Under the pieces are notes generated by a model. That model made no database searches. It was not told where the DNA came from and saw nothing but the letters and a program-made list of their open reading frames with translations. The translations under genes were made by a program, and so were the position numbers. A stretch of 64,000 nucleotides of DNA from Marsupella aquatica. Its lineage: Eukaryota > Plantae > Marchantiophyta. How positions within the stretch are numbered: position 1 is the stretch's first letter; every line of letters begins with the position of its first letter. Of the stretch, positions 15,997-62,851 are shown piece after piece. The stretch covers positions 6,493,251 to 6,557,250 of the forward strand of contig OZ316892.1 of assembly GCA_973895155.1 (NCBI GenBank), written 5' to 3'.

Positions 15997-17617
15997 TTGT
16001 TTGCAGGGAAGAATTGTCATGTTCCTATGCCGTCCGTGCCTGTATATCGGGTAAACAATGAGTCAGGAGACCAAAAGCATTTGGGATCCCTTAGTTGCAA
16101 GGAGGTTTGGACCTTGGCTGACGCTAGGCAAAAGATGGTGGACCTGGAACTTTGGGATTTTGAGTTCCAGTTTATTGATGTCAATTTCAATAGTCGAATT
16201 AAGGTTGCCTGGGAGAAATGCAACCTCATTGAGGACTGTGGAGGGAAACTCGTCGTTATCCCAAAGGTTGGGACTACAATACCAGCTCCCATACTGTCGA
16301 CATTGGGAGTAGCAATGTTTCCAATGGTACATCTCAAACTTGCAGCCAGGGTGATGACCTTGACACCCAACGTGTCAAGGGTACTGACTGGCTAGGAGAT
16401 GAGCTCCCGTTGCCCAACCTTCCCTTGTTGACACTCCTCGACCAGTTGAGGAGCAAGTGCTGCAAGTGAGTCTTAAGTCAACAACTATGCCAAAGGAACT
16501 GGAGAGGCATTGGTTGAAAGAGGTTGATAAGTTGAAGGAGCACATGGTGTCCATCAATGCTGCACACCACAAGTGGAAAGTAATGACTTGGGACAAAGAT
16601 GGTGTTCCTTGTGGTAAGATAGAGTGTGTAGAGTGTCAGTGCAATAGGCTGGGAACATCAAAGGGGTTGATGGACAGAGGGAGCATCACTAACTGCTTCA
16701 CCAATTTCAAACAAAAACATCTCATTACAGATAAGCATGCATCAAATGTGGCAACTAATAGGAGTGAGAAAATTGACGGAGTGGAGATCTCCAAGAGGGC
16801 TGCAGCATCTTTACTGAGTGATAGAAGCACTCTTGACATTCATGTCAAGATTGTGGAGCGTGTGAATGACAGTCAGGTGGTTGACCATCAGACTTTTGAA
16901 ATCGTAGGTGACCTTAGCAAGGAGCCTGTGGAGCTGCGTAAGTTTAAACTTAGGTGTTATTTTTGCACAGAGTATCTTGTATTGATACAACGTAATTTGG
17001 AGTCAAATTTGCAGTCCCATTGTAGTAGTGTGAACCACTTAAACGCAGTGGCCAGAAGTCAGAAACCACCCACTGGTCAACCAGTTCTATCAGGAAAGGC
17101 AGGCAGGCCACCCAGAAGCGACAAGAGAGATGTTCGACAAAGAACAATTGGAGGATTCTTAAGTCGACAAGCTCGAGATAAAGCTTCCAGCAGTCAGCCT
17201 AGGGGTAGCGAATCAAGTGGAGGCTCGAGCAGCCAGACTGGGGATTTAGCACCAGATAAAGGTATTTTGCATGGATGGTCGTTGTTGTGTTGGGGGTTGT
17301 GGAGAGATGTGGTCATATACAGAGGGGAAGTCAGGCCTATCAAGGAAATCCTGTTTGACCAGCTTAAAGTGGAGGGTGACTGGTTTGCAGAGCCTCTAGT
17401 CATTGCCAAGGTGTGGTGTCTATCAACCCAAGAAACATGTGCTATTCAAGGACTGTTTAGACACAAACAGTGCAGTAGAATGTTAGAGGCTGGCGGTGGT
17501 TTTCGAGACCTTACTTGCCAGCAATGTTACTCAATAAAATTTAGGGATGATTTTAGAGGAAGAGTTAGTCGAGAGGCCATCTCAACTCTGAAAAGAGGGA
17601 GCAGAGGGACCGGAAGG
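15997..17617 (+). pseudogene. P-like transposase, N-terminal part (zinc-finger region)
   Basis: ORFs 15997-16395 and 16457-17623; CxxC..HxxxxxH fingers (CVEC..KHLITDKH; CYFC..SHCSSVNH) and HKQC..CQQC; truncated exactly at the CACTA-A1 TIR. Confidence 0.7.
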
Positions 17618-17959
17618 CACTAGTGGAAAATAGTGTCCTTAATGACTAGAATGAGGACTGAAAAATGAGTCATATGTACCAATATATGACTAGAGCTTTT
17701 CTGTCATACCTGCCTCGTCTTTTAGGACAGTCAATTAAGACAAATGACTAAAACTCTCACCAGTCATTTATGGTAGTCCTAAATGACACAATATTTCTGA
17801 AATGACAGGTTGTCCTAAATGACTGAATGAACGGCCGTCAGTCATTTAGGTATGTCTTTAATGACACATATTTAAACAAATCATATTACAACACGTGGCA
17901 ACTACGCACGGTTGTCATTATATGTCATTTCAGACATGTCATAAATGACACAATAATAA

Positions 17960-18275
17960 ATCATTTAAGATGTCATTTAGTGTGTCATTGAAGGTGTCGT
18001 ACAGGGTGTCATTAAAAATGTCATACAAGGTGTCATACAAGGTGTCATTGAGGGTGTCATATAGGGTGTCATTGAGGATGTCATACAGAGTGTCATACAT
18101 GGTGTCATTGAGGGTGTCATTGAGGGTGTCATATATGGTGTCATTGAGGGTGTCATACATGGTGTCATTGAGGGTGTCATTGAGGGTGTCATACATGGTG
18201 TCATTGAGGGTGTCATACATGGTGTCATTGAGGGTATCATACATGGTGTCATTGAGGGTGTCATACAAGGTGTTT
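17960..18275. repeat. 12-bp subterminal tandem array (GGTGTCATTGAG / GGTGTCATACAT)
   Basis: Visible 12-nt periodicity; the GTCAT/ATGAC core is also dispersed through both subterminal regions, as expected of TnpA-binding repeats. Confidence 0.92.
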
Positions 18276-18560
18276 TTAAGTAATGTCATTTGGGATGTAT
18301 CTAAGAAGAGCTCATAGTTGTATTCAAAATCACATACAATGAATCCACTTAAAACCCTAAACAAAGACATCACTTTGCGCATCATCATTGTATTCAGAAA
18401 TTCACATTCCAACATTCACAAGCTCTAGTATAGAACAATTGAAAAAACATAAGTCTTTATGATGAAGTGATAGAAAGTACACATTTTTCACTCGCATGAG
18501 TGAAATAATGGTAACCAAAATATTCAAAAATTCTCTGTTCTACATGATCAGAGAAAATGT

Positions 18561-25608: not shown

Positions 25609-25904
25609 CTCGGGGGTTTCACTTCCACAAAAATGGCATATCACGTGCGACGAAGGATAGGGTCATTTTATTGGTTGTAAGGGAAGACTTAAGAATTTTT
25701 GTAGAAGAACAATAGAGTCTTTTTAATTCAATTTTGAGACTTATAAGAACATTAGGGCCTTTTTAATCCAATTTTTGGAATATTCCAAGAATATTCTAAC
25801 TTTATAGGGGTTAAAAAATAAAATTTTTTCTTACATTTTAGGGGGTCCAAGGCCTAAAAACGTCGCAGGTGATGGGGAGGTCCCCATGTAGTGAGACCCC
25901 CGAG
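25609..25904. mobile_element. 296-bp MITE, copy 2
   Basis: TIRs CTCGGGGGTTTCAC / GTGAGACCCCCGAG; perfect 8-bp TSD CATTTGAG; the orthologous empty site is present in A2 at 45910-45917. Confidence 0.97.
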
Positions 25905-27582: not shown

Positions 27583-28281
27583 CTATTTGAAATCATGTGG
27601 TGGCACCTCAGAACCCTCTGGAATGACATGACAATTGCAGTACACCATACGCCATGGTCCAATATCCCACGTTTCTCTACCCTTCACCCCTCTCTTGAGG
27701 TGTTTGTCTGCCTCTGGTCCCTCATCCCTGCACCATGCACGAGGGCACCTATGACACTGGATAAATTCCCAGATGCCATCCCGATACTCCTTGCAAACAT
27801 CACAATAATGCCTTGGGCATATCAAAGCAGCGGGATGTGCATCTAAGTTCTCTGCATACCCCAAGAGAGGCAACTCCCTTGCCCTCAGTATGGTCCACAG
27901 ACAACCCACGTGATAGAAAGAAAAGCAATCATCTTGTGCACATTGAACCACAAGGGGCTCATCTGTAGTGGGCTTTAGGGTTCGGCCAAGTAGTCCACAA
28001 GCAAAGCAACGACCTCGGTTCTGCTGGCAGAGTTCACAAAGCCACTCCTTGGCCCAATCATGCCCTCTAGAAATGGCAATGCGTGTGCACTCAGACCCAT
28101 GGCCATCAGGCTCCTCGGGATCCCGCCCAACAACTAAGTAATGGAAATGACGACTACAAGGCCCATCGCAGAACAAAACAGTACCTCCCTCATCACATTC
28201 AAAACAACAAGGGGGATCCATGCGAAGGTGCTCTTTATGGGCAAACTTTGGATCTAGCCAGGCAGCAGCAACCCGTGCCAT
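27583..28281 (-). CDS. EDM2/NSD-type tandem PHD-finger protein (232 aa), cargo of CACTA-A1
   Basis: CFECDEGG..LFCDGPCSRHFH..C..WLCELC..CFACG.LG..VQC....C.SFYH.GC..LICPRHYCDVC..QCHRCPRAW..MVYC..HVI, the ligand spacing of the EDM2/NSD PHD cassette. Confidence 0.85.
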   Translation of the reverse strand: MARVAAAWLDPKFAHKEHLRMDPPCCFECDEGGTVLFCDGPCSRHFHYLVVGRDPEEPDGHGSECTRIAISRGHDWAKEWLCELCQQNRGRCFACGLLGRTLKPTTDEPLVVQCAQDDCFSFYHVGCLWTILRARELPLLGYAENLDAHPAALICPRHYCDVCKEYRDGIWEFIQCHRCPRAWCRDEGPEADKHLKRGVKGRETWDIGPWRMVYCNCHVIPEGSEVPPHDFK

Positions 28282-30509
28282 GCCTGATGTGATGTGTGGA
28301 TCTGCACAATTACCTTAAATATTACAAGAAGTCTATGGCATGGAGAAGGGCAACAAACAAGTACAAAGATGGTATGCTTAGTGTACTTACCGTAATCTGA
28401 GGTTTAAGTACACGTCAGAAGATGTCCTGCCCAACTCAGTCTCACGGAGTAGAAGCAATGTCAAAAATAACTTGGCTCTGGTTTATGTGTTGTGCGCAGA
28501 GAGCAACAAGTTAAGCATACTTGGTAAATGTAGTGATCAATCAAGGAATTACCAATGCTGCCTCTAAATTCCTATGTACTCGATTTCTATTAGAGGTGTT
28601 GAGAAACAAACAAAATATGAGAGATTGAGTAGAAGAGCAAACATGGCTCAATGCAGTGGCTTAGGTAGAACCTTAGCAACAACTCTTACTTTGTTTCATT
28701 TAACTCCACACAGAGCCGGGCTTTTTTCAGTGATGGATCAACAAAGACATATTATATTTGATGGGATCAACAGACAGACAAGGTAATTTTGAATAGCAAA
28801 AATTAATCCGAAAAAGTTTGCAATTCAAACACATCCTACAAATCACTCCCAACATCTCTTCTAAAGACAATGGGGATTTCTCAGATAATCTCAACAACAA
28901 ACCAATAACAACAGTAGACACACGACAATAATGCAAGCAAAACTGGAGCAAGCCCACCTCCACTGGACCCTTGTTAGGTAGCACCACTACCAAACAGAGG
29001 TCCAATCTTCCTTAGAATCCTCAAAATTGATGCAAGCGGAAATGCAGGCAGGAATGCAGCTCCAATCGCACCTCGACAGCAACTAGTCTCTGCAGATATG
29101 TAGGTCCAATGTGGTTCCAACACAAGTAAGATTTGGGAAGAGTCAAAACTATCATGGATCTCCTCACAGCGAGCAAACCTTAGCAGTCACACAATATTTA
29201 GTGGCTACTTTGAAAAAACATTAAAAAAGTCAATGCTCGCAGGTGAAGGAGTAGGATAGAAGGCAAATATATCAATTCTTTCCCTAAGCTTGAGCAAGCA
29301 ATTTGTCGGAAAAGCAACAGAGACCTACCGCTACATAGGAAATTAGATGTTGTCAAACAGAGCTTGGTCTTCAATTCAAAAGAGACTCGGGATAGACAGG
29401 ACCGCAACTTTTTGTGAGGGAGGGGGGCGCTGACTACAACGGATTCAAGATTAGCACAACTAACCTTGTAGGTTGTTGCAACTCCAATGTCCTCCTCCAA
29501 TTGGCTCAATGTTCAATTCGCAGGAAATGAGTATACTGCACGACATTACATAGTAAGCGCAGTATACCAAAAGACAAAACTTGGACCATGGCCAGACAAT
29601 GACAGAAACAAATCAGTGAACATTATACAGGGACTGTGAATCCCAAGCCAACAAAGCAACAATCCCAACCCTGTACAGAGATCAATAACATTCCAGCAGT
29701 GCAGGTCTGGTACAAAATGCTGGTATCTTTGTTTTTCATGATTGAAGAGCAAATTCCAGCAAACAAGGACTCGGAAATGAGAGACAGCAAAGTACCTGAT
29801 AGCAAGGTACCCGAGGTAGAACATTTAGGCAAGGGTCGGAAACAGGGACACACTTACACAAGCTCGATGTACATAACTGAATGGCAAATGAGGTTGGGAC
29901 TAATACTAGGCGCATTGGAAAGGGAGAACTTCAATTTACGATTGTAAGGGGCAGCATCCAGCAAAGAGGAAGCAAAAGCGCAAAATTTGCAGCATGGCAA
30001 AGGGGACAGGAAGCATGAAATCAAAGCATGGCCGGCAGGGGGAAGAAGCACAGCAGGTGGACAGAGAATGCACAACTATCCAAGATACCTCAGAGACGCG
30101 CTATATTCAATGTGGATGAAATGGTAGCAGGTAGCGGCAGTGGTGTTGCAGCAACTCCCTCCGTAGCTCTAGCCAAAGGCGCAGAGCGGACCTCTCGTTC
30201 ACGTTGCAGCTCCAACATGTAGGACGGTTAGCATTGCCCAAGTGCGCGTAGCTTGAGCTCCCTTTCACCTGGTTTTTCCCTAATGACAACCCGCGGCCAA
30301 AGCTAGTCCCAAACGCAAATGCCTCCCTATTCACAGTGCACAGCTTCGAATCAATCCCACCGTCCTCACCGATCAGTCCCACCTCGCGAATGGCTTGCGG
30401 ATGGAATGCAGAGACTAAGCGCAAGAGACCGGGCCACACTCCATCCACACTGAAAAGATGTGGAGCAGCACGCACAACCTTCAAGAAACATAGGCGCAAC
30501 GGACCTCAA

Positions 30510-33027: not shown

Positions 33028-35608
33028 GTCGACGGTTAGATTACCTTATAGTTCCTGAAATCAATTTTCAGGCGAAAGTGTATAAGAGGAACATACTGAG
33101 AGAGAGAAGGCGTGTGAGAATGCTACAACACCGTCTATGCATGCTGCATGCACGAGTCCCTTCACTGAGGGATGTCTGCGAGGAGTCATGGAATAGGAAA
33201 GATGTGTTCAAATTTTGCAATTCCATTGTGTTGGCTCATCGAAGAGGAGCCTTTGGTGGGAGAGATGCATTGTGGGATTTGCTGAGAGATGTAGCTTCCA
33301 ACCTCAATAGGGAAAAGCATGGTCAGAGGTGGCAATCAGGGTCAAAGCTACTTGTCCAAACACTGTACCAACATGGTGGAAGACGTGTAGTTGACTGCCT
33401 ACAGACTAATGGTCTAGGCCCTAGTCTGAACACCCTTCAACGAGATCGAAGGGGTATGGCAGTGTTTCGTGTTGGTATACGAGCGGAGCAATTCAAGTTT
33501 GTGGCCGAAGTGTACTCTCGACTGAAACAGAGGATGGGTATCGATGGTCCTGTGCCATGCTATGTGGCTGAGGATGAGACTGTTGTGAAGCGCACAGTCA
33601 GGTGATTTCATTGTCATGATTATCATCTATCATTGAATTTGAGCTCGGTACTTGTTACCATGCCTAGATTGACTCGGAAATTCACTAAAGTTTTCAACTG
33701 CCATGCAGATGGCAGCCTAAACATGATACACTTTTGGGATTTTGTGGAGAGAAAGAGAACCATAAATGTGTGGTGGGCTTAACCGTGAAGGTTGGAGAGG
33801 GAGAGGAGGGCTTCAACAACATAACTGAAGCCTTTCAAACATATGTTGTTGGCCACCAAGCAAGAGCGCTTGTAGTGAATCCCCTGGTTCGTGGATTTCC
33901 TCGACTCTGTGTAGGAGGTACCATTACATGCAACAAGTTTAAGGCGGACGATGTAAGAGATCAATGGAATGACATTGGATCCCTATGGACCACTCATTGC
34001 TTGCAGTCAGTCGGCCCGCTCTTGGGCCATGCTAGTGATGGGGATTCTCGTAGGAGGAAGCTCATGCTGGAAGATTACACTGGTAAAGGAATACAGGGGC
34101 CCAAACAGAACCTTTGCTGGGAAGGATGGCTATTGAGTCACTCGTTTACCACTGAGGGGCCCTATGTGCATGCTCATGGGTTACATGATCAAGATTACAT
34201 CCACAATGGGAAGAAGCTCATCAACACATTGGATTCCTTGGCTAGAACATTGAAATTAGGGGCGCATGTGGCAAGTTGGAGTCATTTGGGGACTGTACAG
34301 AAGCTTGGTAGCCATGATGAACATGGCATTAACCTTGCAGAGATTGGGCATAATGATAGAAAAAATTGGGCTAGTGCACAGAGACTTTGTAGTAGGAAAG
34401 TAGTCTCATCATTGAGGAAGCTTCGACAACGGAAGGATGTGAAAGTGGAGATGTCACTCGGGACTGAGATTTATGTAACCATATGTGCAGACTATTTTGA
34501 TGTGTTCATGAACACATCCCTTACTTTGCGGCAACGGATTGTCTTATGTGGAAAAGTTGGTTTCTTTTTCAGACTTTGAGACTCTGGTGTTTCCATGGGA
34601 ACCATATTGTAGGTGGTAATACACAGCCAAATAGTTTTACAGAAAGTTGCGTCCCTATGCAAACTTTCCTGGACATTCAAATATCAGTGCATATTGTGGT
34701 CCTTCTGATAGTCCAGTTTAGAGAGAATTTCCGACATCTGCCAGTACCCTTGCAGATGACAGGCTTTGACTGTTGTGAACAATTTTTCTCTAAAGTAGGT
34801 GGGATGAAAGGGAATGAGCAAAACTATGACTTTTCGGAACTTGTTGACTGTGCAACCTCTTTAAACAGGTTGGCAGCAATGGACCTGAGTTGTGGGATTG
34901 TAGGTGCAGGGAAAGTCATAAGAAGCACAGGTCCATTTGGATGTCTCTCATTCCAGGCCCTAAGGAGGATGCTGATCAAGCAGATTATTCAGGCATAGAA
35001 ACAAATGAGGAAGTTGCGGCAGCTTTGAAAGAGGGGTTGTTGTTGGCGCAAAATGCTGCCACTCAACTTGAAATGAACCCATTCACATCTTGCAAAGACA
35101 AAGTGTGGTGGGATTCACCATGGATCATGGAACAAAAGGGGTCAAAGTTTGATGGATGGTGTGATGTTCGAGTGGATGATCTCAATCCATCGGATGATGT
35201 ACTAGGTCCCCCAATCCAGCTCTCAACAGGACCTGTAGTTGGGCCATAGGTCCCGAGTACAGTACCGCCTTCTGTAGATCCTACTGTTGAAATACCTGTT
35301 GAAACTCCTATGGAAACGGAGTTGTTAGTAGACGAGGGAGATGATGGGGTTCCAGATGTTCAGATAGCTTCTGCTGGATGTGTGGCAGTTATGTCCGAGA
35401 TTTATGCTGACCTGGTGTATGGTGAGCCTATTGTTGATGTGAAACCTACTGTGAGTTTCCAGGGTTGGCAAATATACAAGAGCACATTGGTTAGTCAGCT
35501 TGTTGGGAATCCCCATCTTAGTAAGGACCGTTTGACTCGCGTGAAGCAGAGCATTTATTTCACCAATTTAGTGGATAAGCCAGTGAATCGAGGTGTACCC
35601 ACTATGTT
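33028..35608 (+). pseudogene. P-like transposase catalytic core
   Basis: AEDET (D1), intron 33602-33708, GHASDGDSRRRK (D2), DQDYIHNGKK (DxxH), DCCEQFFS (E); frameshifts near 34577 and 34895, stop at 35247. Confidence 0.8.
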
Positions 35609-41895: not shown

Positions 41896-41999
41896 TATGG
41901 AGGTATTCGCTGCATTCACTGCTAGACCATGGCATGCCATGTTAGTATGATCCCACTATCAACTAAATGAAACCGGACTGTACAGTATCTTCAAACCAT

Positions 42000-45762: not shown

Positions 45763-46778
45763 GATTGTAGCACTACCTAATCAAAAACACAGTTGCACAT
45801 CTTTCTTCTGTGACATCTTGCAGAGCTCTAGACAACTCCAAAACCCTTCCATACCATCTTCTAGAGCGTCATGTGAAGCAAACATGTGCACAAGTGAAGA
45901 CTAGACATACATTTGAGGTACAGTACTCCAACTGAGGTAAAGGCAGCTCCCACTTTAGCCTTCATTGCCAATAGAATAGTACATGCATGCCAACAACAGG
46001 TAAACAGATGACATATTAGCAACTTGATCAGAAATTATTTACTTGGGTACGTTACCTAATCTCATTTCATATTGTAAGTGGCAATGGGTATTTGAAGGAG
46101 ACTTGAATTGTACAAATCAAAATGTCATCAGTTTACAAGACCAAAGAAAGGCCTACCTGAACCAGATTTAGGCCAAGGGTGTTCACAGTAGTCAGCAATC
46201 TCAGACCCTTCAAAATAGTGAGTACAATAAGAAACATTAATCATAATGTCCATCAATCCCCTCCTTCATTCTTTGACTTTTGAATACATTTGTTGAAAGT
46301 CCTCTTCAAATATATAGGCAATTTTTATTTGGGCAGGTACTAGAATAGATTCCACATCACAACATTTCATCATCCCCACACAAACCAGGATACATATGGA
46401 CAAGGGCCTGAAAGGGTTTCATGTAATCTACATAATTAAACATATAGTGTTTCTGTGCAGTAGTAAGAATGAAATACAGTCACTCAGTCTTCAAAATTAT
46501 CAAAAAGGAGAAAGTTCTAAGACCCGGGTTGAAGGAGTTGTTAAGGGTGTTGACCCGGGTTTAGAAAGGCAGTACTACAAAACTTGAGAGACATTACGTG
46601 AAGTTTGCCTTGTTATGCCCAAATCCCTCAGTCAAAGGGACAACAAGAATTTTAAGACCTTGGGTGGATTTTAGGTCTTGCCTCTTAAGGTCAGTGTGAT
46701 GTTTTTTTAGTTCTTTTGTTATGTATCTCCATTCAGGCTCTTCATATGTTTGCCATTGACAAAACAGTCATCATACAA

Positions 46779-47225
46779 TCAGAATTGATACTGGTCTTTC
46801 TCCACTAAGTGCTGCTCTACTCTAGGGCAAACAGTCTCAACCCCTGGTCCCAAGATTGGCTCATCATGGTGGAACATTATACAGGCACACCTCCTTTGCA
46901 GTCTAATGTGTCCATCCCGCCTATATATATCCCCAGGGCGCACTCGACATTTTGGGCAAAAATCCTCACAACTATGGATACAGGCAGAGTAGCAGATCTG
47001 CTGTGGTTGTACCACTCCATTATCGACTGCCACAATACAAAAACCTATGGGCAAGGGTGGAGCATCCAGAGTAATGGGCCGACTATACGTGTCTCTGTGT
47101 ACAGGCAAAAACTCCCATTGCATAGCAGAACTGGCAGGGACCAACCTCATTCCACTCAGCTTCAGGCGTAGCCTCTCAGCTCTACCTTCAAGGTCAGCTC
47201 CCAATCTGCTGCGCGTCCTTGGCAT
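46779..47225 (-). CDS. 148-aa Cys-rich cargo protein of unknown function (intact in A2)
   Basis: MPRTRS..CYSACIHSCEDFCPKC..CAC..C; same length in both A copies. Confidence 0.65.
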   Translation of the reverse strand: MPRTRSRLGADLEGRAERLRLKLSGMRLVPASSAMQWEFLPVHRDTYSRPITLDAPPLPIGFCIVAVDNGVVQPQQICYSACIHSCEDFCPKCRVRPGDIYRRDGHIRLQRRCACIMFHHDEPILGPGVETVCPRVEQHLVEKDQYQF

Positions 47226-47431
47226 TACTGTAACAAATACAAGAAGCAATAATTTATCCAACCCAAACACTCAATGAAATTCATGCAACAATTTAAGATT
47301 CAACTATTTCATACAATCAGATAGTCCATTAGATAGTGTAGTCCACTTCATACTATAATCAAACAATTTAGTCCACTTCATGAATACTTAATACTATGTC
47401 GTGTTTCTCTACACAACTGAAGGCTTATGAT

Positions 47432-48130
47432 CTATTTGAAATCATGAGGTGGCACATCAGAACCCTCTGGAATGACATGGCGATTGCAGTACACCATACG
47501 CCATGGACCAATATCCCAAGTTTCTCTACCCTTAACCCCTCTCTTCAGGTGTTTGTCTGCCTCTGGTCCTTCATCTCTGCACCACGCACGAGGGCACCTA
47601 CGACACTGGATAAATTCCCAGATGCCATCCCGATACTCCTTGCACACATCACAATAATGCCTTGGGCATATCAGAGCAGCGGGATGTGCATCTGAGTTCT
47701 CTGGATAAGTTATCAGAGGCAACTCGTTCGCCCTCAATATAGTCCGTAGACAACCCACATGGTAAAAGGAATAGCAATCGTCCTGTGCACACTGAATCAC
47801 AAGGGGCTCATCTGTAGTGGGTTTCACGGTTCGGCCAAGTGACCCACAAGCAAAGCAACAAGCTCGGTTCTGCTGACAGAGGTCACAGAGCCACTCCTTG
47901 TCCCAATCATGCCCTCTAGAAATGGCAATGCGTGTGCACTCAGGCCCATGGCCATCAGGCTCCTCAACATCCTGCCCATCAACTAAGTAATGAAAATGTC
48001 GACTGCAAGGCCCATCGCAGAACAAAACAGTACCTCCCTCATCACATTCAAAACAACAGGGGGGATCCATGCGAAGGTGCTCCTTATGGGCAAACTTGGG
48101 ATCCAACCAGGCAGCAGCAGCCCGTGCCAT
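47432..48130 (-). CDS. EDM2/NSD-type tandem PHD-finger protein (232 aa), cargo of CACTA-A2
   Basis: 22 of 232 residues differ from the A1 copy by my count; no indels or stops; predicted Zn ligands retained. Confidence 0.85.
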   Translation of the reverse strand: MARAAAAWLDPKFAHKEHLRMDPPCCFECDEGGTVLFCDGPCSRHFHYLVDGQDVEEPDGHGPECTRIAISRGHDWDKEWLCDLCQQNRACCFACGSLGRTVKPTTDEPLVIQCAQDDCYSFYHVGCLRTILRANELPLITYPENSDAHPAALICPRHYCDVCKEYRDGIWEFIQCRRCPRAWCRDEGPEADKHLKRGVKGRETWDIGPWRMVYCNRHVIPEGSDVPPHDFK

Positions 48131-51100
48131 GCTGAAGAAAATAAAATCTGCACAATTGCCTTCAACATCACTCCAAAGTCCATTCAAAAACCAAGAGACA
48201 AACACAAAGAAGGTAAGTGAAGTGTACTTACTCACAGAGCAGTTGAGCCAGCCCCAGTCGCACCTCCAACCAGCACAGACCTGTGGTTACCACACTCATC
48301 AGTCTCCCCAATATTTATTCCCCAATTGCCCCAATATTTATTCTCAGTCTAGCCAAACCAGCCTACAGGCCTACACCAGCTATTAAGTTTTCCCTAACGT
48401 CCCAACTGACAAAACAGCTCAGCCTCTGTTGCACTTAAACTAGAACAGAACATACATCTGAAAATATTCTGATCATCACCTCCAAACCTTCCGCTTTAAC
48501 AAACAAATCACAGCCGTCCGTACGTAGCTCTCAATCAATAAACATACAAACCCTGAGAGACACACCCTATCAAATTACTTTAGGAGAAGTAAATATACTC
48601 TACTGTAACTGAATTCTAGGTTTGACATGATTGTATGAATTTTAATGGGTATCCTGTTCAGGAGATCATTAGTTGAAGTGTTCTAAGCAGCTCCAATTCT
48701 CAAATACGCACCTAAGGCCTTAGCAGAATTAATAATTACAGGCTTGTTGCAAAAACTATAAGGCCAGACAGGATACCTTAAGGGTGAAAGGTTTGCGGAC
48801 AATCTGTAGAGAGCAGATTGCCTACAATCAAATCGAGACGCCCATAAACCCTGCACAACCACCACACAACAATTGCACATTGCTGACAGGAAATCACATG
48901 AAAGAATGCAGTATAACCAGAAGGGAAGAAGTATAATGCTTCTAAAATTAACGGACTTTGAAGAGCATAGCAGACCTCAGACATGATTTGCCGTTTGGTT
49001 CAGACAAAAATTAATGAGACAAGAGAGACAACAAGGTACCCGAACCTTGCAGCGGGAAGGGGAAAAAGGGACGCAATGGAGGAAAGAGGAGAAGATGGGC
49101 TTTCAAAAGAGAAAACACGACCGAGCAGGGTGAGACAAGCAAGACTTCATCAAAGGACAGAACGCTGGAGTATGAAATCCATGATTACTCTGTTTTTAGA
49201 TATATTATATTTTCAGAAGAATAAGGAAGCAAGGCCTAGTGGATCCACACTGTCTTAAAGGTACTAGCGGGCAATATACAAACATCCAATCCCAAGCCAA
49301 CAGATATAACATTTCTTGGCCAGCACAGACAGGAAGCTCGAGAGGAGCACAAAGCAAGCCGCACAGGGTGAGAGAGAGGCATGAACACAAAAACCTATAC
49401 AGACCAGAACGAAAGCTCCCTTCAAGCTGGGACTCTACTCTTGATTGATCGATGTTGCTGATACTAGCTAGTGCACTTTACTGAACTGAAAAAAACATTG
49501 ACAGCATCGGGCAGTGTAAGTGAAAATGAAAGCATTAAGAAGCAACAGTAGTCTCAGGGATTGAGGTGGGGTTTTAGGTAGCTTTGGTGCAGGAAAAAGT
49601 AAGGAGGGAATGCTAGGCATTTCCTAAGACCAGTAGCCCAATCAAGGTGATCAGAGCAATAAGTAAAATACAAACGGGGATACAAATGGCAAAGGCATGA
49701 CAAGAGAAAAGGGAATGGCCAAGGCATGACCACACGCAGCTCAAAGCCAAAGCAGAAATTCCAGAGCAAAGTCAAGAAGGACCAAAAATGATGTAGCGGT
49801 ACACACCAGATCACCCCAGATCACCCCAGATGCCTTCTACTTTTCCAATACCGCTGATGCAGACCCTAATGTCGAGCCCTCGCGCCTGCACACTTGATAC
49901 CCCCGATCAATTTCATACCATCACAAACGAGTACCGTATGCAATGTTCAAGAAGATGTTGCATCTGCAACCCAGGTTGAGACCATTTTCAGGGAGCGCAG
50001 ACGACAGCGCATGTTGATTTGACAGATAAGGGAGCAACATTGAAAGAAAAGCAAGCTGCATATTGAAGACTTAACATTGAAAGCTACCGTGGGAATACTC
50101 ACAAATCAGCAGCGGCCTCCAGTGCAATGCCTCCCACCCCCTCCACGTTCTCCTTCAAAGCCACGCTAAGGTCGACGCTACACACTACACTCACAGGAGA
50201 GAGATCGATCAAGGCAAAAATGCAAATCCGCAACCTTAGAGTACACTGTATGGAGAAAAAGAGCAATAGGGGAAGAAAAGCAAGGGAAGCAGACACAAAA
50301 GCATTAAGCAAAAGACAAACGGGGATGCCAAGCAGAAAGCATGATAGGAGAGAAGCGAATGGTTGAGGCATGACAAGACGCAGCTCAAAGCCAAAACAAA
50401 GAGGCATACATACCTTCAACCGGAAACTCTCTTTAAGCTCAAACACACAGAAGCTGCAGCAACTCGCAGCTTCCCCTAGCGCTCGATCACACCAACTCAC
50501 AACAATCTGTAGTTGCTCGCAGCAGTTTGCAGCAAGTCCCTAAACTCCCAGCAGCTTGCAGCTCCCACCAACACCTCTCAGCGGCTCCCAGCGAGTCCAA
50601 CAGCGCACCAGGAAATCTCCTGAGGAATGCAGGTCCGAGCTCGAGCTCGATCGTCAACAACTTACAGTGAAGCAAGGAACTTCCTTCACAGTCCTAAGGT
50701 GCAACTCGCGACTCTATTCTTGCTGCTTCGATCACAAAAGGTCCTTTCAGGTGAGCGCCCCTCCTTCCTGGTCGCCGTTGCACTGATTGCTGGCAGCTAG
50801 AGTTCCCTTCCACAATGACGGGAGTGTGCGTGTGCTTGAGGTGATCAGCGATGGTGGGCTGTACATAAGGGCAGCAGTAGGGAGTTCCCCCAAGAGTTAT
50901 GAGCCTTTCAGAAATCACGATGGCGGCAGCAAGTAGGAACGTAGGAGCTCGGTCCTAGGGCAGCTTCCCACTGCCCACAATAACAAAGTGCGACCCTCCT
51001 CCTCCACCCTAAACCGTAGTCCCAAGTTGCAGCTGAACTCCACAGCATCCGATTAGAAGGCCAGACTAAACTCCCGAGTTGATGAGTGAGTAAGTGCACT

Positions 51101-51914
51101 CTGCGTCGCAACGATAAACCCTTCGACAAACTGCGCAAAGGAGCAGGAAAACCTCAACATTCGATAAGCTCTTCGCAAAGTTCTTTGTGAAACAGGGAAT
51201 CCAATGAGCCGGGTGCTTCTAGCAGTTCCCGCCAGTGACAAAGGCAAGGGCCGGGGGATTGAGGGGATGACATGTGGACGATGGAGATTGCATCCAACTG
51301 CGACTATGAACGGGAAACTTCAACGGTCCAAGTGAAGGGGTTACTAGGGCCTTATTCCCCCCATAAAGGACTTAATTAAGTATGTGATGTCATTAGGGAG
51401 TGGAAAATGACTTTGCACCACCCATAACTATTTTTCTCCCCCAAAAGTGCAAAAATTACTAACACACCCTCTAGAGAAAAACAATTCCAAGAAGCCCCTT
51501 TGGGCAATCCATCAGCCATAAAGCATCTCAAATAATTGAAATGTGTGGCTAAGTTAACAGGAGGAGTTAATTGGCAGCCTAAAGGATATTTGGCGGTACC
51601 TTAACGGAGTTCTGGGCGTAATTTAGCAAAAGACATAATCTGCAATTTGGGCCCCTTTTTTCTTAACTGAAATGATGGAAACTTGGTACGGAGCAGTACA
51701 ATAAATCATCTAAATGAGAACTTACTCCAGAATATCTAACATAGATATAGTCAAGTGTGTTTGGTATACTAAGGGACCAAAAGCTATCGTGACTCTTTTG
51801 CCCTCATGACATATATGCAATGGTATGACCCCCATAAAGTGAAGTCTGCCCATATAATGACTCCAACATGGAAACAAAGTAACATAGACCAGATTAGGGT
51901 CCAGGGTTGAAGTG

Positions 51915-53725
51915 TACCCTATCCCGCACCATGTGGAGTGGGTAGCATCCCTAATGGCCGGCTCAGATCATGTATATTGTAAATAAGCCCCCAAAGGCCC
52001 CAAGGAGTCATATTGTCCATGGCATGCTTGACTGCCGCATTGACATCATCAATTTATGACTCATATTTGTGTCATTTGCTTAAATGACACCCCTCAGCAC
52101 TCCACAAATGACAAAAACCTTCAATCACATGCACAAATGACTCAAGATCCCTTACAAATGACCAAATGGGAGTGGTTTGCACTCCTTTGGACAAATGACT
52201 CCAAAGTCATACAACTTGGGAGTGTTTTGCCCAAAGTTGGGTGATGCCCTTCCATGATGCAAAATGTGTGCTTTAAAAAGTGTTGTGGAGGCCAAGTGGC
52301 ATAACTAGTGGCTCACGGTGTACAAGTACCCCATCCCGCACCATGTGGAGTGGGTAGCATCCCTAATGGCCGGCTACGATCATGTATATTGCGAATAATC
52401 CCCCAAAGGCCCCAAGGAGTCATATTGTCCATGGCATGCTTGACTGCCACATTGACATCATCAATTTATGACTCATATTTGTGTCATTTGCTTAAATGAC
52501 ACCCCTCGACACTCCACAAATGACAAAAACCTTCAATCACATGCACAAATGACTCAAGATCCCTTACAAATGACCAAATGGGAGTGGTTTGCACTCCTTT
52601 GGACAAATGACTCCAAAGTCATACAACTTGGGAGTGTTTTGCCCAAAGTTGGGTGATGCCCTTCCATGATGCAAAATGTGTGCTTTAAAAAGTGTTGTGG
52701 AGGCCAAGTGGCATAACTAGTGGCTCACGGTGTACAAGTACCCCATCCCGCACCATGTGGAGTGGGTAGCATCCCTAATGGCCGGCTACGATCACGTATA
52801 TTGCGAATAAGCCCCCAAAGGCCCCAAGGAGTCATATTGTCCATGGCATGCTTGACTGCCGCATTGACATCATCAATGACTCATATTTGTGTCATTTGCT
52901 TAAATGACACCCCTCAGCACTCCACAAATGACAAAAACCTTTAGTCAAGTGCACAAATGACTCTATATCCCTTGCAAATGACAAAATGCGAGTGGTTTGC
53001 ACCCCTTTGGGCAAATGACTCCAAAGTCATACAACTTGGGAGTGTTTTGCCCAAAGTTGGGCCATGCCCTTCCAAGGTGAAAAAGTTGGGTCATAAAAAC
53101 TATTGCGAGGTCAAATTGAGATAACTAGTGGCCCAGAGTTTAGGTGTACCCTACCCCGCTCCATGTGGAGTGGGTAGCATCCCTAATGCTGGGCTACAAT
53201 CATGGATATAGCCAATTGACCCCCGGAGGCCCCAAAGAGTCATATTGTCCATGGCATGCATGACTGCAACAGTGACATCATGAATGACCCATTTTTGTGT
53301 CATTTACATGAATGATGTCTCCCAGCACTTCCTAAATGACACAAACCCTTAGTCACGTGCACAAATGACTCTAGATCCCTTGCCAATGATTCACAATAGT
53401 GGTTTGCACCCCTTTGGGCAAATGACTCCAAAGTCATACAACTTGGGAGTGTTTTGCCCAAAGTTGGGTGATGCCCTTCCATGATGCAAAAGGTGTGTTT
53501 TAAAAAGTGTTGTGGAGGCCAAATGGCATAACCAGTGGCCCAGGTTTGTCAAGTACCCTATCCCGCACCATGTGAAGTGGGTATCATCCTTAATGGCCGG
53601 CCCCTATCACCAATGGGGTCAATCAGCCACCAAAGGCTCTTAAGAGTCATATTCTGCATGGCATACGTGACCACAACATTGACATCCCAAATGACATTTG
53701 CATAAATGACATCTAGCGGCACTTG
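51915..53725. repeat. ~408-412-bp subterminal tandem repeat (~4.4 copies)
   Basis: CCCGC.CCATGTG recurs near 51923, 52335, 52747, 53155 and 53562. Confidence 0.92.
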
Positions 53726-54626
53726 TCAAATGACTAGAAAGTTGAGTGAGAGCAAAAATGATTGGGAATCCTTTGCAAATAACATGAATAATATATTGGA
53801 AAAAATGACATGAGCAAATATAGGCATGTAGTATCTAAATTCTAAACCTTAAACCCTAGACCTATGCCCGAGAGTGTTATTTGGCAACCTTGCATGCCCC
53901 CATATAGACTCCAACATGTGAAATGTGAATACAGCTTAAGGAATGTAAACACTTCAGGAGTCCTTGGCATATATAGGAAAGATGTAATAAATGGGTGCAA
54001 GTATATATAAATATACATACTTATTAGAGATTATCAAGCCTTTAAGTTGTACATCAATTTAATGATGAGACTCACAACAAAAGAAGGCTTGTTAGGTCTC
54101 TAAATGTATTTCAAATCTAATATGTGAGTGCCACTAGTCTTTATATATACTACCATACGTTTTGGATGACTAATCATACCCTAAACCCTAAAACATATAC
54201 TAAACCATAAACCTCAAAATAGTCATATGTTGTTTATCATGTCATTTATCACTTTTGGTTTAAATGACTACTAACATTTTTAAACACTGATATTTGCATA
54301 TTTGATTTATTAGTCATTAGTCACCGTCGTCTGAAATGACTTCCCATATGTGAAACACTGATATGACAGAGTTTTTGTTAATTGTGTCATTCACAAAGAC
54401 TGTCCAAAATGACTACAACTCATGATTGCTGTCATTATAGCAGTCAAAGTCATTTGGCTCATTGGTTTAAATGACACTATTACAAGTATTAGTCATTTTT
54501 TGCACCCCGTCATTTTGGACAGTCATTTCAATGTCATTTATGTCATGTCATTTACATATTTTGTCATTTGAGCACATAAGTCATATGTGTCATAGTCATA
54601 AAAGGCCCCATTTTCTACTAGTGAAT

Positions 54627-56970: not shown

Positions 56971-57954
56971 GTGACACGTAGGCCTTCAACTCCACTACTC
57001 TCAAAAGAAGTGTGGATAGAGTCATTTTTGGCAACGGCAAAAAACATGCTTGCATCATCCTCTGCAGCCACGGCTCCAATTCCATCCGAGCCTACATTGA
57101 ATCTTCTTGAGAGTGGCCAGTGTCCACCTGAGAGGGTATTGGAGCCTATAGTTGAGCCTCATGAGGAGCCGCCTAGTCCACCAGTCAACCGGGTGCAGCC
57201 CAAACATGGTCAACCTACTAGGACACTACGCACAAGGCCACGGTCTCAAAGACGTAGACGACATTATGAGCCAATTGGTACAATAGAGCCTGGAGAGGAT
57301 GAACCTCAGGTTGGGAGGGCACCTAGAGGTGTAGATTGCATTATAGTTGAGGGCCGTTTTGGATTGTCATATGTCCATGGGAGGGCAGCTGAAATCTTGA
57401 AGGACTTCAGCTCTACAATTTTCAAATTTCCCTCTACCATTCCCTTGGAGCAACCGGTACACATATGGGGTTATTCGTGGATAATTAAACCCTCCTCTAT
57501 TGGACCTCACATTGGATATGGCTTATTTGCTGCCAAGGATATTTTGGTTCCTCAAAAACCTTGGCGGCGAGGGTTTGATGGGGTACATTTGTTCCCTTAC
57601 ATTGGTCCTGTATATTCCAGTAAGAATTGGAATATACTAGTGCGCCAACACCCGTCTTGGGCAGTGTATGCCCTTAGGATGGACTCAGACCCCGATGAGG
57701 TCTTCACAAGGCCTTGGCATTGTCGCATGATTGATGGTGATCCAGTGCGTAGTGACAACATAGCAGGTTACATCAATAGTACTCAAGGTAGAGGTAGACA
57801 GTTGGAGCCCAATGTAGAATGGGTTCAATGCTTTGGTCCACCACGAGAACCTTACTATGTAAAGCATATGGATGACCATATCATGACGGTAGCCATACGG
57901 GACATTAGAGCTGGTGAGGAGTTGTTGTGTGATTATGAATGGGAGGAACCCAAG
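56971..57954 (+). CDS. CACTA-B TnpD exon 2: Pro-rich linker plus SET domain
   Basis: IKPSSIG..GYGLFA.KDI; FPYIG; IDGD...SDNIAGYINS; PNVEW; AIRDIRAGEELLCDYEW; flanked by ATAG| and |GTTAAG, both phase 0. Confidence 0.88.
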
Positions 57955-58112
57955 GTTAAGATACGTCTTGAGGGTCCCCGATGACATGTACACCTATTTC
58001 ACTACACATGTGTATATATATTTGACTCTTCATTATCCACGACATTGTGTAATTATTTTGGATGGATCAATCAATAATAGTGTGATTTGTAATGTTGTTG
58101 CACATATGATAG

Positions 58113-61100
58113 GGCCGTTTTGTTGAGCCTGATTTTTCGGTGTTACCACGAGCTATGCGAGAACACCTTGTGGAGGCCATGGCCAATTGGCGCGAGCAAC
58201 ACCCAGACCACACACCACATGAGGAAGTAGATGGTCCACAAGACCGACTTGATGAGGAGAGAGCCATGGATGACCTGATGCATCAGTTTTATGACATAGG
58301 CAACGATGAGGGGGAAGAAGACATAGGCAACGATGAGGGGGAAGCTGTTCATCCACGGAGAAGGGCAATGACAAAGCAATGGGAGGAGGCTCAAGGGCAT
58401 GCACGAACAAGGATTTATGAGGGTTCTCGCTTATCACGTCTTTCCTCGATTCTGTTGTTGTTGAACTTGCAACAAAGACATGGGGCAAGCAACCTCCTAT
58501 TAGATGATCTATTTAGGACTTTGCATGATTGCATATTGCCAGAAGGGAACAACATGCCAGGGTCTTGGAAGGAGGCAAAGAAGGTATTGAAGTCCATTGG
58601 CCTGAATGAAGTCATTCATGCATGCAAGAATGATTGTGTTCTGTTTTGGGGGGAGCACGCCAATGCAATTACATGCCCTATTTGTGATAGCCCTCGATTT
58701 CGTGGGGACACACTAACCAAGAGGGTACCACATAAGGTGATGAGGCATTTCCCTCTTATTCCTCGCTTGCAGCATCAATATCGATGTGCTGAGTTGGCTG
58801 AGCACATGGTATGGCATGCACAACACCGTTCAGATCAGACATATGACCCTACTGCAGTCACGCGAATGATGGTTGATTCTCCCATGAACAGATTTGTGGA
58901 GGAGACATGGAGTGAGTTTAGAACTGACCCTCGACATGTTAGACTGGGATTGGCATCAGATGGCATTAGTCCATTTGCACTTGCGGGCAAGGCCAAGCCG
59001 TACTCAGTTTGGCCGGTGGTTCTTACAAACTACAACATTCCACCGTGGATGGCCATGAAAAAAGGACATCTACTTCTTTCCATGATCATCCCTGGTCCGA
59101 AGCAAGTTAAGAAAATTGATGTGTACTTCATTGATCAAGGAGCTACAAGAACTTTGGGCAGGAGTGGATTGTTATGATGGACGTCGGGTTACAAATGGCT
59201 TAGCTCGCCAATTTATGCTCAAGGGAATTCTTATGTGGACCATCCATGACCTTCCTGGTATGTACTCATCTTAGCTACTAGCCTTGGACATGTCTACAAA
59301 TTTATGTTGGGTGTACACTAATATACACAAGTGCATACTTGCATTATTTTACCAATAGTTATACATATATATATATATATATTTATTTATTTATTCTATA
59401 AATAATCCTAACTTGTAACTACAACATTTGGGGTTTTGTAGGATTTGGCTACGTGTCTGGTTTGCAAACTCAAGGATATAGAGCTTGCCCATCATGTGGA
59501 CCAGATTTGGAAGGGGTTGCACGACCAAAGTCCAAAACTTTGCGGAAGATTGTTTACCTTGGTCATACAAAGTATCTTCCACATGACCATCCATGGAGGT
59601 CTGACCCATTTCTGTATGACACAGATGAGGGCCAACCTGGCACTCGACCTCAACCTGTGAGAAAAGACCCACAATATTGGAAACAGGTATGGGAGAGAGT
59701 GCAAGACCCAGATGACCCATTGTTGTTGCCTAGATGTGGGATGAGCCGCTTATCAGCTTTGTCACAATTGCCATACTGGTCTCATATGCCCATCAACCAT
59801 TTGTTTGACCCTATGCACATTGAGGGGAATGTTGGCCGTTCTTTGATCCGACATCTATATGGTGAGAAGGACAACAACTGGAGAGAAAGTTGTGAGGAAA
59901 TGGGCATGCATGGCCTTTTGGGTTTTTGGCCATCATTGGAACCCCCAGGTGATCCTCAAACTGTCCACCCTCCTTGGGTGCTGACAAGAGAGGAACGAAC
60001 AGAGTTTCGCCGACGCATAGGATCAATGAGGTTTCCCACTGGCTATGGAGCAAATCTTTGCAAGGCATTTGGGGGAGCAGACTCTCCACTGTGGCCATCA
60101 TATTTGAAGACGCATGACTTCCATCGTTTGTTGCAGCATATCATTCCAGTGGCTATTATTGGGTTGGGTAGTGATGATTTGCGTGATGCCATTTGGTCTT
60201 TGGGTTGGCTTTTGAGATGGGTCTGTCAAAAGGAGGTAAGGGAAGATGAAATCCTTGCTATGGAAATATTTGGGGTGGAGGTGGTGTGTAAATTGGAAAG
60301 GGCACTTCCTCCTTCCCTTTTTGATGGCCAAGTTCATTTTCTGATTCACTTAGTGCATGAGGTGGCACTTGCAGGCCCAGTACATTGCCGTTGGATGTAT
60401 TGGGTTGAGCGTTACATGGGAGTCATGAAATCCTATGTTACAAATCGTGCTAGGGTGGAAGGTAGCATTGCGGAGCGTCATCTTGGAGCTGAAAGTATGT
60501 TCTATTGTACTAACATACTTGCCACACTTGACCCAAATGCACCAAGGGGGTGGATAGATGAGGCAACAAGGGAAGCCGATTATGAGGATGATAGGTTGAC
60601 CGGTGCATTGGGAGAACGAGTGTTAGGCTCTGCCGAGCATACACAACTCACAACATTTATGTTGTACAACTCTCCAGATGATGTAGAGGGATGGACCAAC
60701 TTTTATGAGGAGGAGAAGCAACAAAGCAGGAGACCACGTATTTTCCCAAAGTTCCTTCCGTACATGAGGTCCAAATTGGAGCATATTGACACCATGTTGA
60801 GAGAGGAACAACCAATAGCACAGTTTCCAATGGTGACAGATCGTCTTCGTACCATGGTTCATGGACCTTTACTTGTGGTGTCTACTCGGACAGCAATGTG
60901 GTCAAAGGGAAGGCATTTTCGAGTAAAACGCCTTGATGATAAGAGGGCAGCAACACAAGATTGTGGGATTATGGGTTGGTTTACCCAGGATTCACAAAGT
61001 AGCACATCTGACAGGAACCCCATCCGTTCATCCGTGGCCCACTATGGCAAGATAGAGGAATCTCGGGGGTTTCACTTCCACAAAAATGGCATATCACGTG

Positions 61101-61697
61101 CGACAAAGGATAGGGTCATATTATTGGTTCTAAGGGAAGACTTAAGAATTTTTGTAGAAGAACAATAGGGTCTTTTAAATTCAATTTTGAGACTTATAAG
61201 AATATTAGGGTCTTTTTAATCCAATTTTTAGAATATTCCAAGAATATTCCAACTTTATAGGGGTTAAAAAATTACAAAAATTTCTTACATTTTAGGGGGT
61301 CCAAGGCCTAAAAACGTCGCAGGCGATGGGGAGGTCCCCATATAGTGAGACCCCCGAGAGAGGAATCCCTACCATCAAATATCATGCTCAAGTTACTATG
61401 GAGGAGGTGGTGTTAAAGTGCAAATGGTTCAAGATGAACCTTGTTGGGCACAATAGGACTTGTGAAGAGGATCCCTGTGGTTTTACACGGTTGAAGACAG
61501 CTAGTGTTGTTAGCTCAAATTCGAGAACCTCGGACCCATTTGCATTCCCACATCATCTTGAGCAATGCTTCTACTTGCCATATCCTGATGATCCAGATTG
61601 GTCCATTGTGATGCCCTACATACCTCGGTCACGCTCTATCATCCAAGAGAAACCAGATGTAGTTGTTTTGGAACTTGTAGACCCAATTGACACATAG
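58113..61697 (+). pseudogene. CACTA-B TnpD exons 3-4 (Transposase_21, DUF4218, DUF4216)
   Basis: IHACKNDCVLF; RHVRLGLASDGISPF; WTIHDLPG|FG (intron 59258-59441); DPMHIEGN; LKTHDFH; GPVHCRWMYWVERY; KCKWF..DPF; frameshift near 59130 and MITE insertion. Confidence 0.95.
61062..61358. mobile_element. 297-bp MITE, copy 3
   Basis: Same TIRs; perfect 8-bp TSD AGAGGAAT (61054-61 and 61359-66). Confidence 0.97.
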
Positions 61698-61829
61698 TTC
61701 ACGCATACACCTAGACCTATGACCTTTTATGTTTTATTGCCTCTAGGCTCTCGGATTATATCATATTATGTTGTTGTTAATCAATCCTTGTAATAAACAG
61801 AGTGATTGAACACATCTTTCCCATACTAT

Positions 61830-62305
61830 TTCCGATGTCCAAAGCATTGGAAATTAATTGCACATGACTAAATGACTATCCTAGTTAGAGTCCGATAAAC
61901 AAACATTCGGAAACAACATGTCCGATGCAACAGTCATCGCACATTATTTCCCATTCTCACAGCATCGGATCCTATATCCGAAACTCTCATCATCGGACCC
62001 CCATCGGATTCCATGTCCGTTGCTTTCAGAAACGGACCACTTCCGATCACAAATCCTCCGCACATTATTTTCGTTGCAATACCCATCGGATATATGAAAA
62101 TATTTTTTGTTGGAGGGGTCCGATGTAATGTGTTACGGATACGATTCGTTGGGTTCCGCATCGGAGACGTTTCCGTAGCTGTTATTATCGGATATAACAA
62201 TGTCCGAACCCGAGAGTATGGCATATTGCGATGCGCTGAGTATGGGATGGTCCGATGTTCCAAGTATGGGATGCGGATTCTTCGCAAAAATGGAGCATCG
62301 GAAGT
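61830..62305. repeat. CACTA-B right subterminal TCCGAT/ATCGGA motif field
   Basis: Dense TCCGA/TCGGA motifs ending at the TIR. Confidence 0.8.
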
Positions 62306-62328
62306 GAGCATAATATGTAGTAGTGGTT

Positions 62329-62851
62329 CATGACTGTTGGTAGTGACTGTGGTGTATTATTTGAAGATAATACACCACAGGTGAGAGAAACTCGAAATTC
62401 TGGAGGAAGTTCTTGATGCTTGAAAGGGAAAGGAGTTCAAAAGAAAGGGTGTAGCCAGGACTCTAGTGCCCTCCCCAACCCAAAGAGGCCACGAGGTGTG
62501 GCAGTCAATGTGGCCACAATACCTGACAGTCCTAAATATGTGTGATGGATAGGACGAGTACAATGCATTCAGAGGAGGTATAATGGGAAAGTTGGTAGAA
62601 CAAGAGAAGCTGTGGATTTGCTTGATAGGCCTGGTGCTGATCAGGGAGTGAAAGTTCGATTTGATTGGTTTTCACGGGTGGGAAATAGCAGGCTAAAATT
62701 TGCGTACAATGTCTCCGATCCTGACTGGATTGACTTGGACTGTGTCATATCAGCAGTCACTTTATCAGTGAATCCTGGTTGTCCAAACGTCTTCCACCTG
62801 GATCAGGCAGATGCAGTTGTTCTGGATGATTTTGTCCAGACCCAAAAATGA
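62329..62851 (+). pseudogene. P-like transposase C-terminal part
   Basis: Continues in frame from 35608 (MFMTVGSDCGVLF), then frameshifted IGRVQCIQRR..DLLDRP..FAYNVSDPDWIDLDCVISAVTL..DDFVQTQK*. Confidence 0.7.

Follow-up and report, generated by a model that had tools for sequence, protein, structure and literature searches.

Based on the analyses described here, we propose that a 64,000-nt stretch of the genome of the liverwort Marsupella aquatica (assembly GCA_973895155.1, contig OZ316892.1, forward-strand positions 6,493,251 to 6,557,250; hereafter the window, whose own coordinates are used throughout) very probably carries a dead copy of a cut-and-paste transposon split by two CACTA elements. 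Its transposase is predicted, from the model of a homologue, to have the fold of the Drosophila P element transposase, and in its intact relatives the terminal inverted repeats (TIRs) are short and G-rich and the target-site duplications (TSDs) are 8 bp long. The family is a P-superfamily variant in land plants, and we hold with high confidence that it is like P by all the structural and terminal criteria tested. It is not canonical P, because the THAP domain is missing and the guanosine triphosphate (GTP) site appears to be remodelled.

The transposase gene was traced with P0002, an intact 1529-aa protein of Calypogeia fissa that is the best named homologue and serves as the reference for the window pieces. 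A tblastn search with P0002 found seven colinear pieces, from 16027 to 62845, that match its residues 1-1527 at 45-70% identity; colinear pieces at this level of identity mean that the gene match is not a chance one. The pieces, the intron and the transposons inserted among them are laid out as follows:

16027-16417, plus strand: 5' end of the gene, for a linker and a small domain at the N terminus, 45% identical to P0002 1-78, with a one-base frameshift near 16290
16403-17617, plus strand: N-terminal zinc-motif region, 56% identical to P0002 145-540
17618-33024, minus strand: CACTA/EnSpm transposon A1, sitting in the transposase gene, with CACTA termini, TSD AGG and Pfam matches to Transposase_21, DUF4218, Transpos_assoc and PHD
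33028-33601, plus strand: coiled coil, helix-turn-helix (HTH) and first catalytic Asp (AEDET, 33567-33581), 63% identical to P0002
33602-33708, plus strand: GT..AG intron of 107 nt, whose splicing restores the reading of intact P0002
33709-34890, plus strand: ribonuclease H (RNase H) core and helical insertion domain, to the catalytic Glu, with a frameshift near 34560
34911-35608, plus strand: C-terminal part with an acidic linker and a conserved L.GNP.LSKDRLTRVK block, 46% identical to P0002 1133-1358, with a frameshift near 34900 and a stop at 35247
35609-62325, plus strand: CACTA/EnSpm transposon B, sitting in the transposase gene, with CACTA termini and TSD GTT, and containing the nested A2
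37898-54623, nested in B: CACTA A2, with its termini and TSD AAT
62329-62851, plus strand: 3' end of the transposase gene, 49% identical to P0002 1362-1527, with premature stops at 62414 and 62543

With the frameshift at the A1 junction added to the three listed, the gene has four frameshifts (A1 junction, about 16290, 34560 and 34900) and three premature stops (35247, 62414 and 62543), and from its sequence this copy reads as a dead pseudogene. Public contigs hold copies without one base at 16287 and/or 16291. The original prediction was that removing A1 and B reassembles one long gene; the pieces are indeed colinear with P0002, but the frameshifts and stops leave no single open frame. The B junction, said to be in frame, and the A1 junction, said to be off by one base, are both seen in the sequence, and the predicted motifs were located (AEDET at 33567, GHASDGDS at 34025, DQDYIHNGKK at 34187 and DCCEQFFS at 34768). 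Splicing of the predicted intron likewise gives the reading of the intact homologue, and the proposed gene start at 15997 has to be moved, the first residue of P0002 aligning at 16027 instead. The intron has no counterpart in L001 and L003, two relatives with a single open reading frame (ORF).

The catalytic residues are near-invariant in the family alignment, where the first Asp is present in 59/59 rows, the second in 61/62, the Asp and His of the D(2)H motif in 62/62 and 61/62, and the Glu in 57/57; a 296-aa core piece used as query retrieved 74 homologues. In the window copy, the second Asp lies in SDGDS at 34034, D(2)H at 34193 and the Glu in DCCEQFFS at 34768-34791. The spacing from D(2)H to the Glu has a family median of 190, compared with 192 in Drosophila P and 199 in THAP9. 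The interval between the first two catalytic Asp residues is about 120 residues, compared with 70-73, being stretched by an insertion with a C-H-C-C set (C182, H188 and C190 in 61/61 rows each, C244 in 59/61; 33740-33940 in the window copy), which is likely a metal site. The order D..D..DxxH..E had been taken in the original prediction as the signature of P; the core is placed with P by fold and profile, but the order alone is not specific to P, and the C/D(2)H motif occurs in other superfamilies too.

For the fold, a core model of homologue P0021 was made with AlphaFold2 from an alignment of 64 rows, three window pieces among them (predicted local distance difference test, pLDDT, 88; predicted template modelling score, pTM, 0.87). 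Foldseek with this model ranked the Drosophila P transposase structures 6p5a and 6pe2 at the top (E 5e-11 and 1e-10), followed by RAG1 (5e-4) and then by Transib, Hermes (0.013) and ISCth4 (0.015). In the VIA comparison, the model superposes on 6p5a residues 128-569 over 413/442 residues with Z 23.4 and a root-mean-square deviation (rmsd) of 3.6, whereas Transib reaches Z 9.7, RAG1 8.9, Hermes 8.8 (rmsd 7.8) and ISCth4 8.5. By the same superposition, the model contains a helical insertion like the GTP-binding domain of P, and ahead of the core it has helices at 2-121 for an HTH and coiled coil, a region that the profile aligns with 6p5a 93-247. Independently of the model, a 101-row family profile searched against 177,635 PDB sequences had 6p5a as its best match (E 0.0069) and aligned the family invariants with D230, D339-H342, Q399-S409 and D444 of 6p5a, the Asp of AEDET being D230; narrower searches of the PDB sequences, with a single sequence or the first profile, gave nothing relevant. 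In the ESM Atlas, the two best clusters are unannotated and, where hosts are known, mostly from Basidiomycota, and ranks 3-5 (0.95-0.96) carry PF21787-9 and are labelled THAP9/P. Weak matches to PF12017 were found in 2/64 scanned family proteins or pieces, and the scanned set has no match to the Pfam families of hAT, MULE or Kolobok. Structure and profile searches had been set beforehand as the check that could refute the assignment; they put the core with P transposase, not with hAT, MULE or Transib.

In place of a THAP domain, the N-terminal region of the window copy has two Cx2C..Hx5H motifs (Cx2C-x27-Hx5H at 16625-16738 and Cx2C-x17-Hx5H at 16955-17038) and a C..Hx2C..Cx2C motif at 17288-17527 (its HxxC..CxxC part at 17462-17527), whose Cys and His ligands are conserved across the plant clade in the alignment. 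Judged by their pattern, these motifs would be zinc fingers and DNA-binding. No match to THAP (PF05485) was found in 34 + 30 + 20 = 84 scanned proteins and pieces, which took in the full-length members P0002, P0006, P0012-P0014, L001 and L003. The two CxxC..HxxxxxH fingers, the HxxC..CxxC motif and the lack of a recognisable THAP domain noticed from the sequence alone all stand. THAP9 and Galileo carry THAP. An AlphaFold2 model of the region consists of three separate folded modules (pTM 0.34), for which Foldseek found nothing at E<=0.001 among solved structures. The best VIA matches of this model are HPF/dsRBD-like folds (top Z 6.9), with U1/matrin-type fingers (TUT4 and snRNP chains) at Z 4.3-4.6; no THAP structure is among the matches, which by itself rules nothing out. 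Members outside the plant clade (P0043, P0044, P0097 and P0103) have other appended domains, namely PTM/DIR17-like Tudor, SAP and C1, and their sequences suggest frequent domain swapping within the lineage.

P is marked by a GTP requirement and by cleavage with a 17-nt stagger. P transposase is the sole transposase known to need GTP, which is contacted by eight of its residues (D528, K385, K400, V401, S409, F443, D444 and N447) and by the terminal G(-1) of the element (PMC7776569). In the plant clade, the equivalent of D444 is present in 28/28 rows, that of D528 in 23/24 and that of S409 in 15/28, the alignment stretch behind this mapping being a weak one (0.6 bits). By the same weak mapping the window copy keeps 4/8 of the contact residues. 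All of the family ends found finish in G, and in the P complex it is this base that pairs with GTP. The P-like insertion domain likely retains a pocket for a guanine nucleotide or a DNA end, though a remodelled one; from sequence, dependence of the family transposase on GTP might go either way.

The ends of the family were sought in 80 related loci, with an inverted-repeat finder in 38/80 and by pattern in 80/80, most loci being too short or one-ended. L003 is complete: it is 6096 bp long, its TIR of 26 bp is perfect, its TSD measures 8 bp and it has one ORF, of 1520 codons. L037 (7.5 kb, from a more distant group that is not plant-like) has a like TIR, and its duplication of 8 bp comes with two additional bases at one side. 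Counting MITEs (miniature inverted-repeat transposable elements), there are six two-ended elements with family TIRs, of which three have an exact 8-bp TSD (L003 and two MITEs), two a near-exact one (L037 and MITE copy 1) and one none. The termini are of the CYCGGGG type (CYC..GRG), and the TSD sequences are varied and not TTAA. TSDs of 7-8 bp had been expected for full copies, in keeping with the 8-bp TSDs of L003 and two of the MITEs. About 30-40 bp inside many of the family termini (L001, L005, L011-L013, L021, window position 2461 and the MITE left ends) there is a CACGTG box, a candidate subterminal binding site for the transposase. The window contains three MITEs of this type:

14283-14579, plus strand: MITE copy 1, 297 bp, with family-type TIRs and a duplication of 8-9 bp that has 2-3 additional bases at its right
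25609-25904, plus strand: MITE copy 2, inside CACTA A1, with an exact 8-bp TSD; the empty site is found in the sister element A2 near 45910
61062-61358, plus strand: MITE copy 3, inside CACTA B, with an exact 8-bp TSD

These 297-bp MITEs are 95-98% identical to one another. In public contigs (four runs from two studies, with one possibly being the source of the window itself), their coverage is far above that of the surroundings in the four runs. Records break into unrelated flanks at the left end, 14283, 21-65 times per run in 4/4 runs, and at the right end, 14579, 34 and 44 times in two runs; a MITE-free joint, 14273>14582, is also found in these contigs. A 54-bp stretch at 8048-8101 has 84-87% identity to the MITE interior, in inverted orientation.

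For the window element itself, no convincing inverted repeat was found between 1-17617 and 62326-64000; for its ends there are two unproven candidates, a G-run near 8757 on the left and a site at 63036. Upstream of the transposase gene there is a further region:

8700-16026, plus strand: multi-copy upstream region with candidate accessory ORFs, matched by many diverged contigs in 4/4 runs

One public contig joins 15537-15700 to 15973-16479, and the records that extend past 8700 number 0, 0, 1 and 0 in the four runs, a weak hint only for the left end. Being multi-copy throughout, 8700-17617 probably belongs to the window element, in which case the element would be at least 12 kb long with accessory ORFs. 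The ORF at 12069-12536 has an RNase H1 N-terminal domain (PF01693, E 2e-12), and that at 14892-15572 is an orphan of 227 aa with two open homologues at 76% identity, no Pfam match and only Atlas matches below 0.9. An ORF at 12825-13319 and short exon-like pieces at 10070-11960 with strong splice sites, one of them like a degenerate PHD start, also lie here. These upstream ORFs and exons may be accessory genes of the element; neither the upstream nor the downstream ORFs have a match among the 80 related loci. Downstream, a 160-codon frame at 63168-63647 has a WxCxxC..CxxC motif and nothing above noise in Pfam, and L001 has a second frame of 174 codons (7003-7527), without a Pfam match, between its transposase and its right TIR.

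From these results we suggest a plausible scheme for transposition of the family. The transposase, of about 1500 aa, would bind the element ends, the likely means being the HTH together with the zinc motifs that replace THAP at the N terminus, and the sequence recognised would be the CYCGGGG..CACT TIR together with the subterminal CACGTG box. The ends would then be paired and cut by the DDE site, and insertion would take place with an 8-bp stagger. The 297-bp MITE, which appears to be widely spread in the genome, would be mobilised in trans by the transposase.

Of 1.84 billion cluster representatives, a profile search returned 997 at E<=1e-30, mostly unnamed. The named hosts are three liverworts (Calypogeia fissa, Riccia sorocarpa and R. 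fluitans), one fern (Adiantum nelumboides) and one EukProt entry. A FastTree phylogeny was made from 145/383 cores, the dropped ones having less than 80% core coverage or being near-duplicates, including two Adiantum and several Riccia rows. It contains a 39-row clade (SH 98) in which the window copy is joined by L001, L003 and every named plant row retained, four in total; the EukProt entry falls outside. On these sequences, the land-plant members appear as a single clade within a larger branch of the P superfamily that lacks THAP and has no name, and the lineage as one that is not plant-specific and is widespread outside plants too. With few named hosts, the clade would fit a long residence in land plants and is not proof of it.

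P elements had been said to be rarely described in land plants, and no description of a P-type element in land plants was found in the full-text literature searched, a body of text that excludes most subscription journals and Repbase Reports. A review lists six TIR superfamilies for land plants, P not among them (PMC9033089), a survey of 21 species reports P-type MITEs in Chlamydomonas only (PMC9641971), a liverwort genome is given zero P elements with 26% of its repeats unclassified (PMC12130436), and the portions of PMC4438587 and PMC13519894 hold nothing on P in plants. Compared with the Drosophila P transposase (6p5a, 6pe2), the family has in common the coiled coil, the HTH, the split RNase H with its helical insertion, the D, D, D(2)H and E residues, the equivalents of D444 and D528 (by weak mapping), the 8-bp TSD, the 3'-terminal G and a short TIR (26 bp here, 31 bp there). 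It differs in its length (about 1500 aa vs 751), in having N-terminal C2H2 and Cys/His motifs without THAP, in the C-H-C-C insertion of the RNase H, in a long conserved C-terminal region, in its CYCGGGG termini and in the replacement of most GTP-contact residues, at an identity of 12-13%. With THAP9, Galileo and 1360/ProtoP, beside which we set it by description, the family shares the signature string, which is defined together with the D(2)H motif in PMC8230255; Galileo and 1360 have 7-bp TSDs (PMC3698922), compared with 8 bp in the plant family.

Several points weigh against the assignment to P. The identity to P transposase is 12-13%, and the fold was modelled for a homologue that shares 37-49% identity with the window pieces and not for the broken protein that the window itself encodes. 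All of the Pfam P-domain matches are below the curated cut-off, PF21788 reaching E 0.0075 in the window core; such sub-threshold matches would leave the family unclassified by annotation pipelines. Only 2/8 GTP contacts, D444 and D528, are kept clade-wide, D528 being mapped by spacing only, and the equivalents of K385, K400, V401 and N447 are, by the weak mapping, G, N, W and mostly L/M. Of the six two-ended elements, L001 (8.8 kb, 1517 codons) has TIRs and no TSD (1/6), and a TSD of 8 bp is typical of hAT as well. The link between the MITE and the transposase is the likeness of its TIRs to those of L003 and L001, not to the window element's own ends. The tree is midpoint-rooted and does not include canonical P rows.

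Some of these points could instead mean that the family and P are sister groups and that the family merits a superfamily of its own, with the ancestral fold and 8-bp stagger retained, its own DNA-binding and metal modules, other termini and no GTP. We consider this unlikely, and it differs from assignment to P mostly in rank. The absence of THAP from all 84 scanned proteins and pieces, the invariant C182, H188, C190 and C244 insertion with its interval of about 120 compared with 70-73, the loss of 6/8 GTP-contact positions clade-wide, the 997 representatives at E<=1e-30 and the fact that the P-domain cut-off was reached by 0/30 scanned all favour a separate rank. On the other side, the family and P superpose across the entire HTH-RNase H-insertion architecture; the two agree in D(2)H, in the distance from it to the Glu, in TSD length and in the terminal G; and a continuum with PF21787-bearing clusters is seen in the ESM Atlas. 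A bolder version of the P assignment, in which an ancient, still-mobile and unpublished THAP-less P branch has resided in land plants since before the liverwort-fern split, driving a MITE of top abundance, with C2H2 reading of the ends and GTP-free transposition, seems doubtful to us. It is conceivable, if not what we expect, that elements of this kind already stand under P in a database, which would leave the mechanism unaffected.

It is very unlikely that the family is an already catalogued one, such as an unpublished Repbase or Dfam entry or Lanisha, and a shade less likely again that it is Lanisha itself. Lanisha was named from the moss genome of Ceratodon (MT647524) as an undescribed cut-and-paste superfamily (PMC8245031 and preprint), and so shares with our family a bryophyte host, the cut-and-paste mode and a place beyond the six classic superfamilies of plants. 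In PMC12730594 it is CMCT-type, with the motifs C(2)C and H(3-4)H in the interval from the second D to E, TSDs of 2-5 bp and CA..TG termini. In our family that interval has CxxC in 1/58 rows and an H(3-4)H pattern in 23/58 with no conserved column. Lanisha's description reportedly also mentions a U1-like zinc finger. The 8-bp TSDs, the CYC..GRG termini and a fold that is P-like and not Transib/RAG1-like (Z 23.4 vs 9.7) set the family apart from Lanisha as described. Still more improbable is a divergent hAT, MULE or Kolobok, for which D(2)H and the 8-bp TSD would be merely shared traits. The RNase H fold with a helical insertion and a similar TSD length are common to hAT (Hermes) and MULE/IS256 (ISCth4), an 8-bp TSD suits hAT, and both structures appear in the fold lists, but their Z of only 8.8 (Hermes, rmsd 7.8) and 8.5 is far under the 23.4 of P. 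With these low Z values and no such Pfam match, hAT and MULE identity is largely refuted; the target duplication of Kolobok, for which the structure library searched has no entry, is TTAA, and the varied TSDs of the family are not. Least credible is a domesticated host gene, comparable to THAP9 and not part of a mobile element: the intron, the long multi-exon upstream region and the failure to find the element's own termini within the window would suit it, but the gene is a pseudogene, many diverged copies cover this region in 4/4 runs and close relatives lie between TIRs with TSDs.

Near the left edge of the window lies a second, more decayed copy:

1254-3680, minus strand: second transposase remnant, with tblastn pieces at 3679-3282, 2968-2702, 2450-2361 and 1923-1571

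A second diverged copy had been predicted at 2621-3775; it is real, but longer (minus strand, from about 3680 to 1254) and of a different subfamily. It runs to a right-end-type TIR at 1254, and what is probably a MITE of the family breaks it up at about 2461-2680. At 48% identity to the main copy and 65% to P0324, its sequence places it in another subfamily of the plant clade, which implies that at least two subfamilies have inhabited the genome. An inverted repeat of about 270 bp and 73% identity (891-1154 and 8325-8588) flanks the remnant, and may correspond to the long TIRs of an old element by which the remnant was captured.

The ORFs of the inserted CACTA elements match Transposase_21 and DUF4218 in Pfam. 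A1 and A2 are 97.5% identical across 7.2 kb and have 400-bp subterminal tandem repeats; by their sequences, the locus was struck twice by a single CACTA family. Chromatin-type cargo is also present: NSD-like PHD fingers in A1 (27586-28314, minus strand, PF22908, E 5e-8), a near copy of this ORF in A2 (47432-48286, minus strand) and a SET domain in B (56971-57981, plus strand, PF00856, E 4e-8).

If our assignment is right, the family would add P to the set of TIR superfamilies of land plants, and would give a name to some of the unclassified repeats and MITEs of bryophytes and ferns. With an intact, single-ORF relative that is 12% identical to P transposase and has a remodelled pocket and another DNA-binding module, the ancestry of GTP use and of THAP becomes testable. 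A plant-native P-type element with its cognate MITE is, in addition, a candidate tagging tool.

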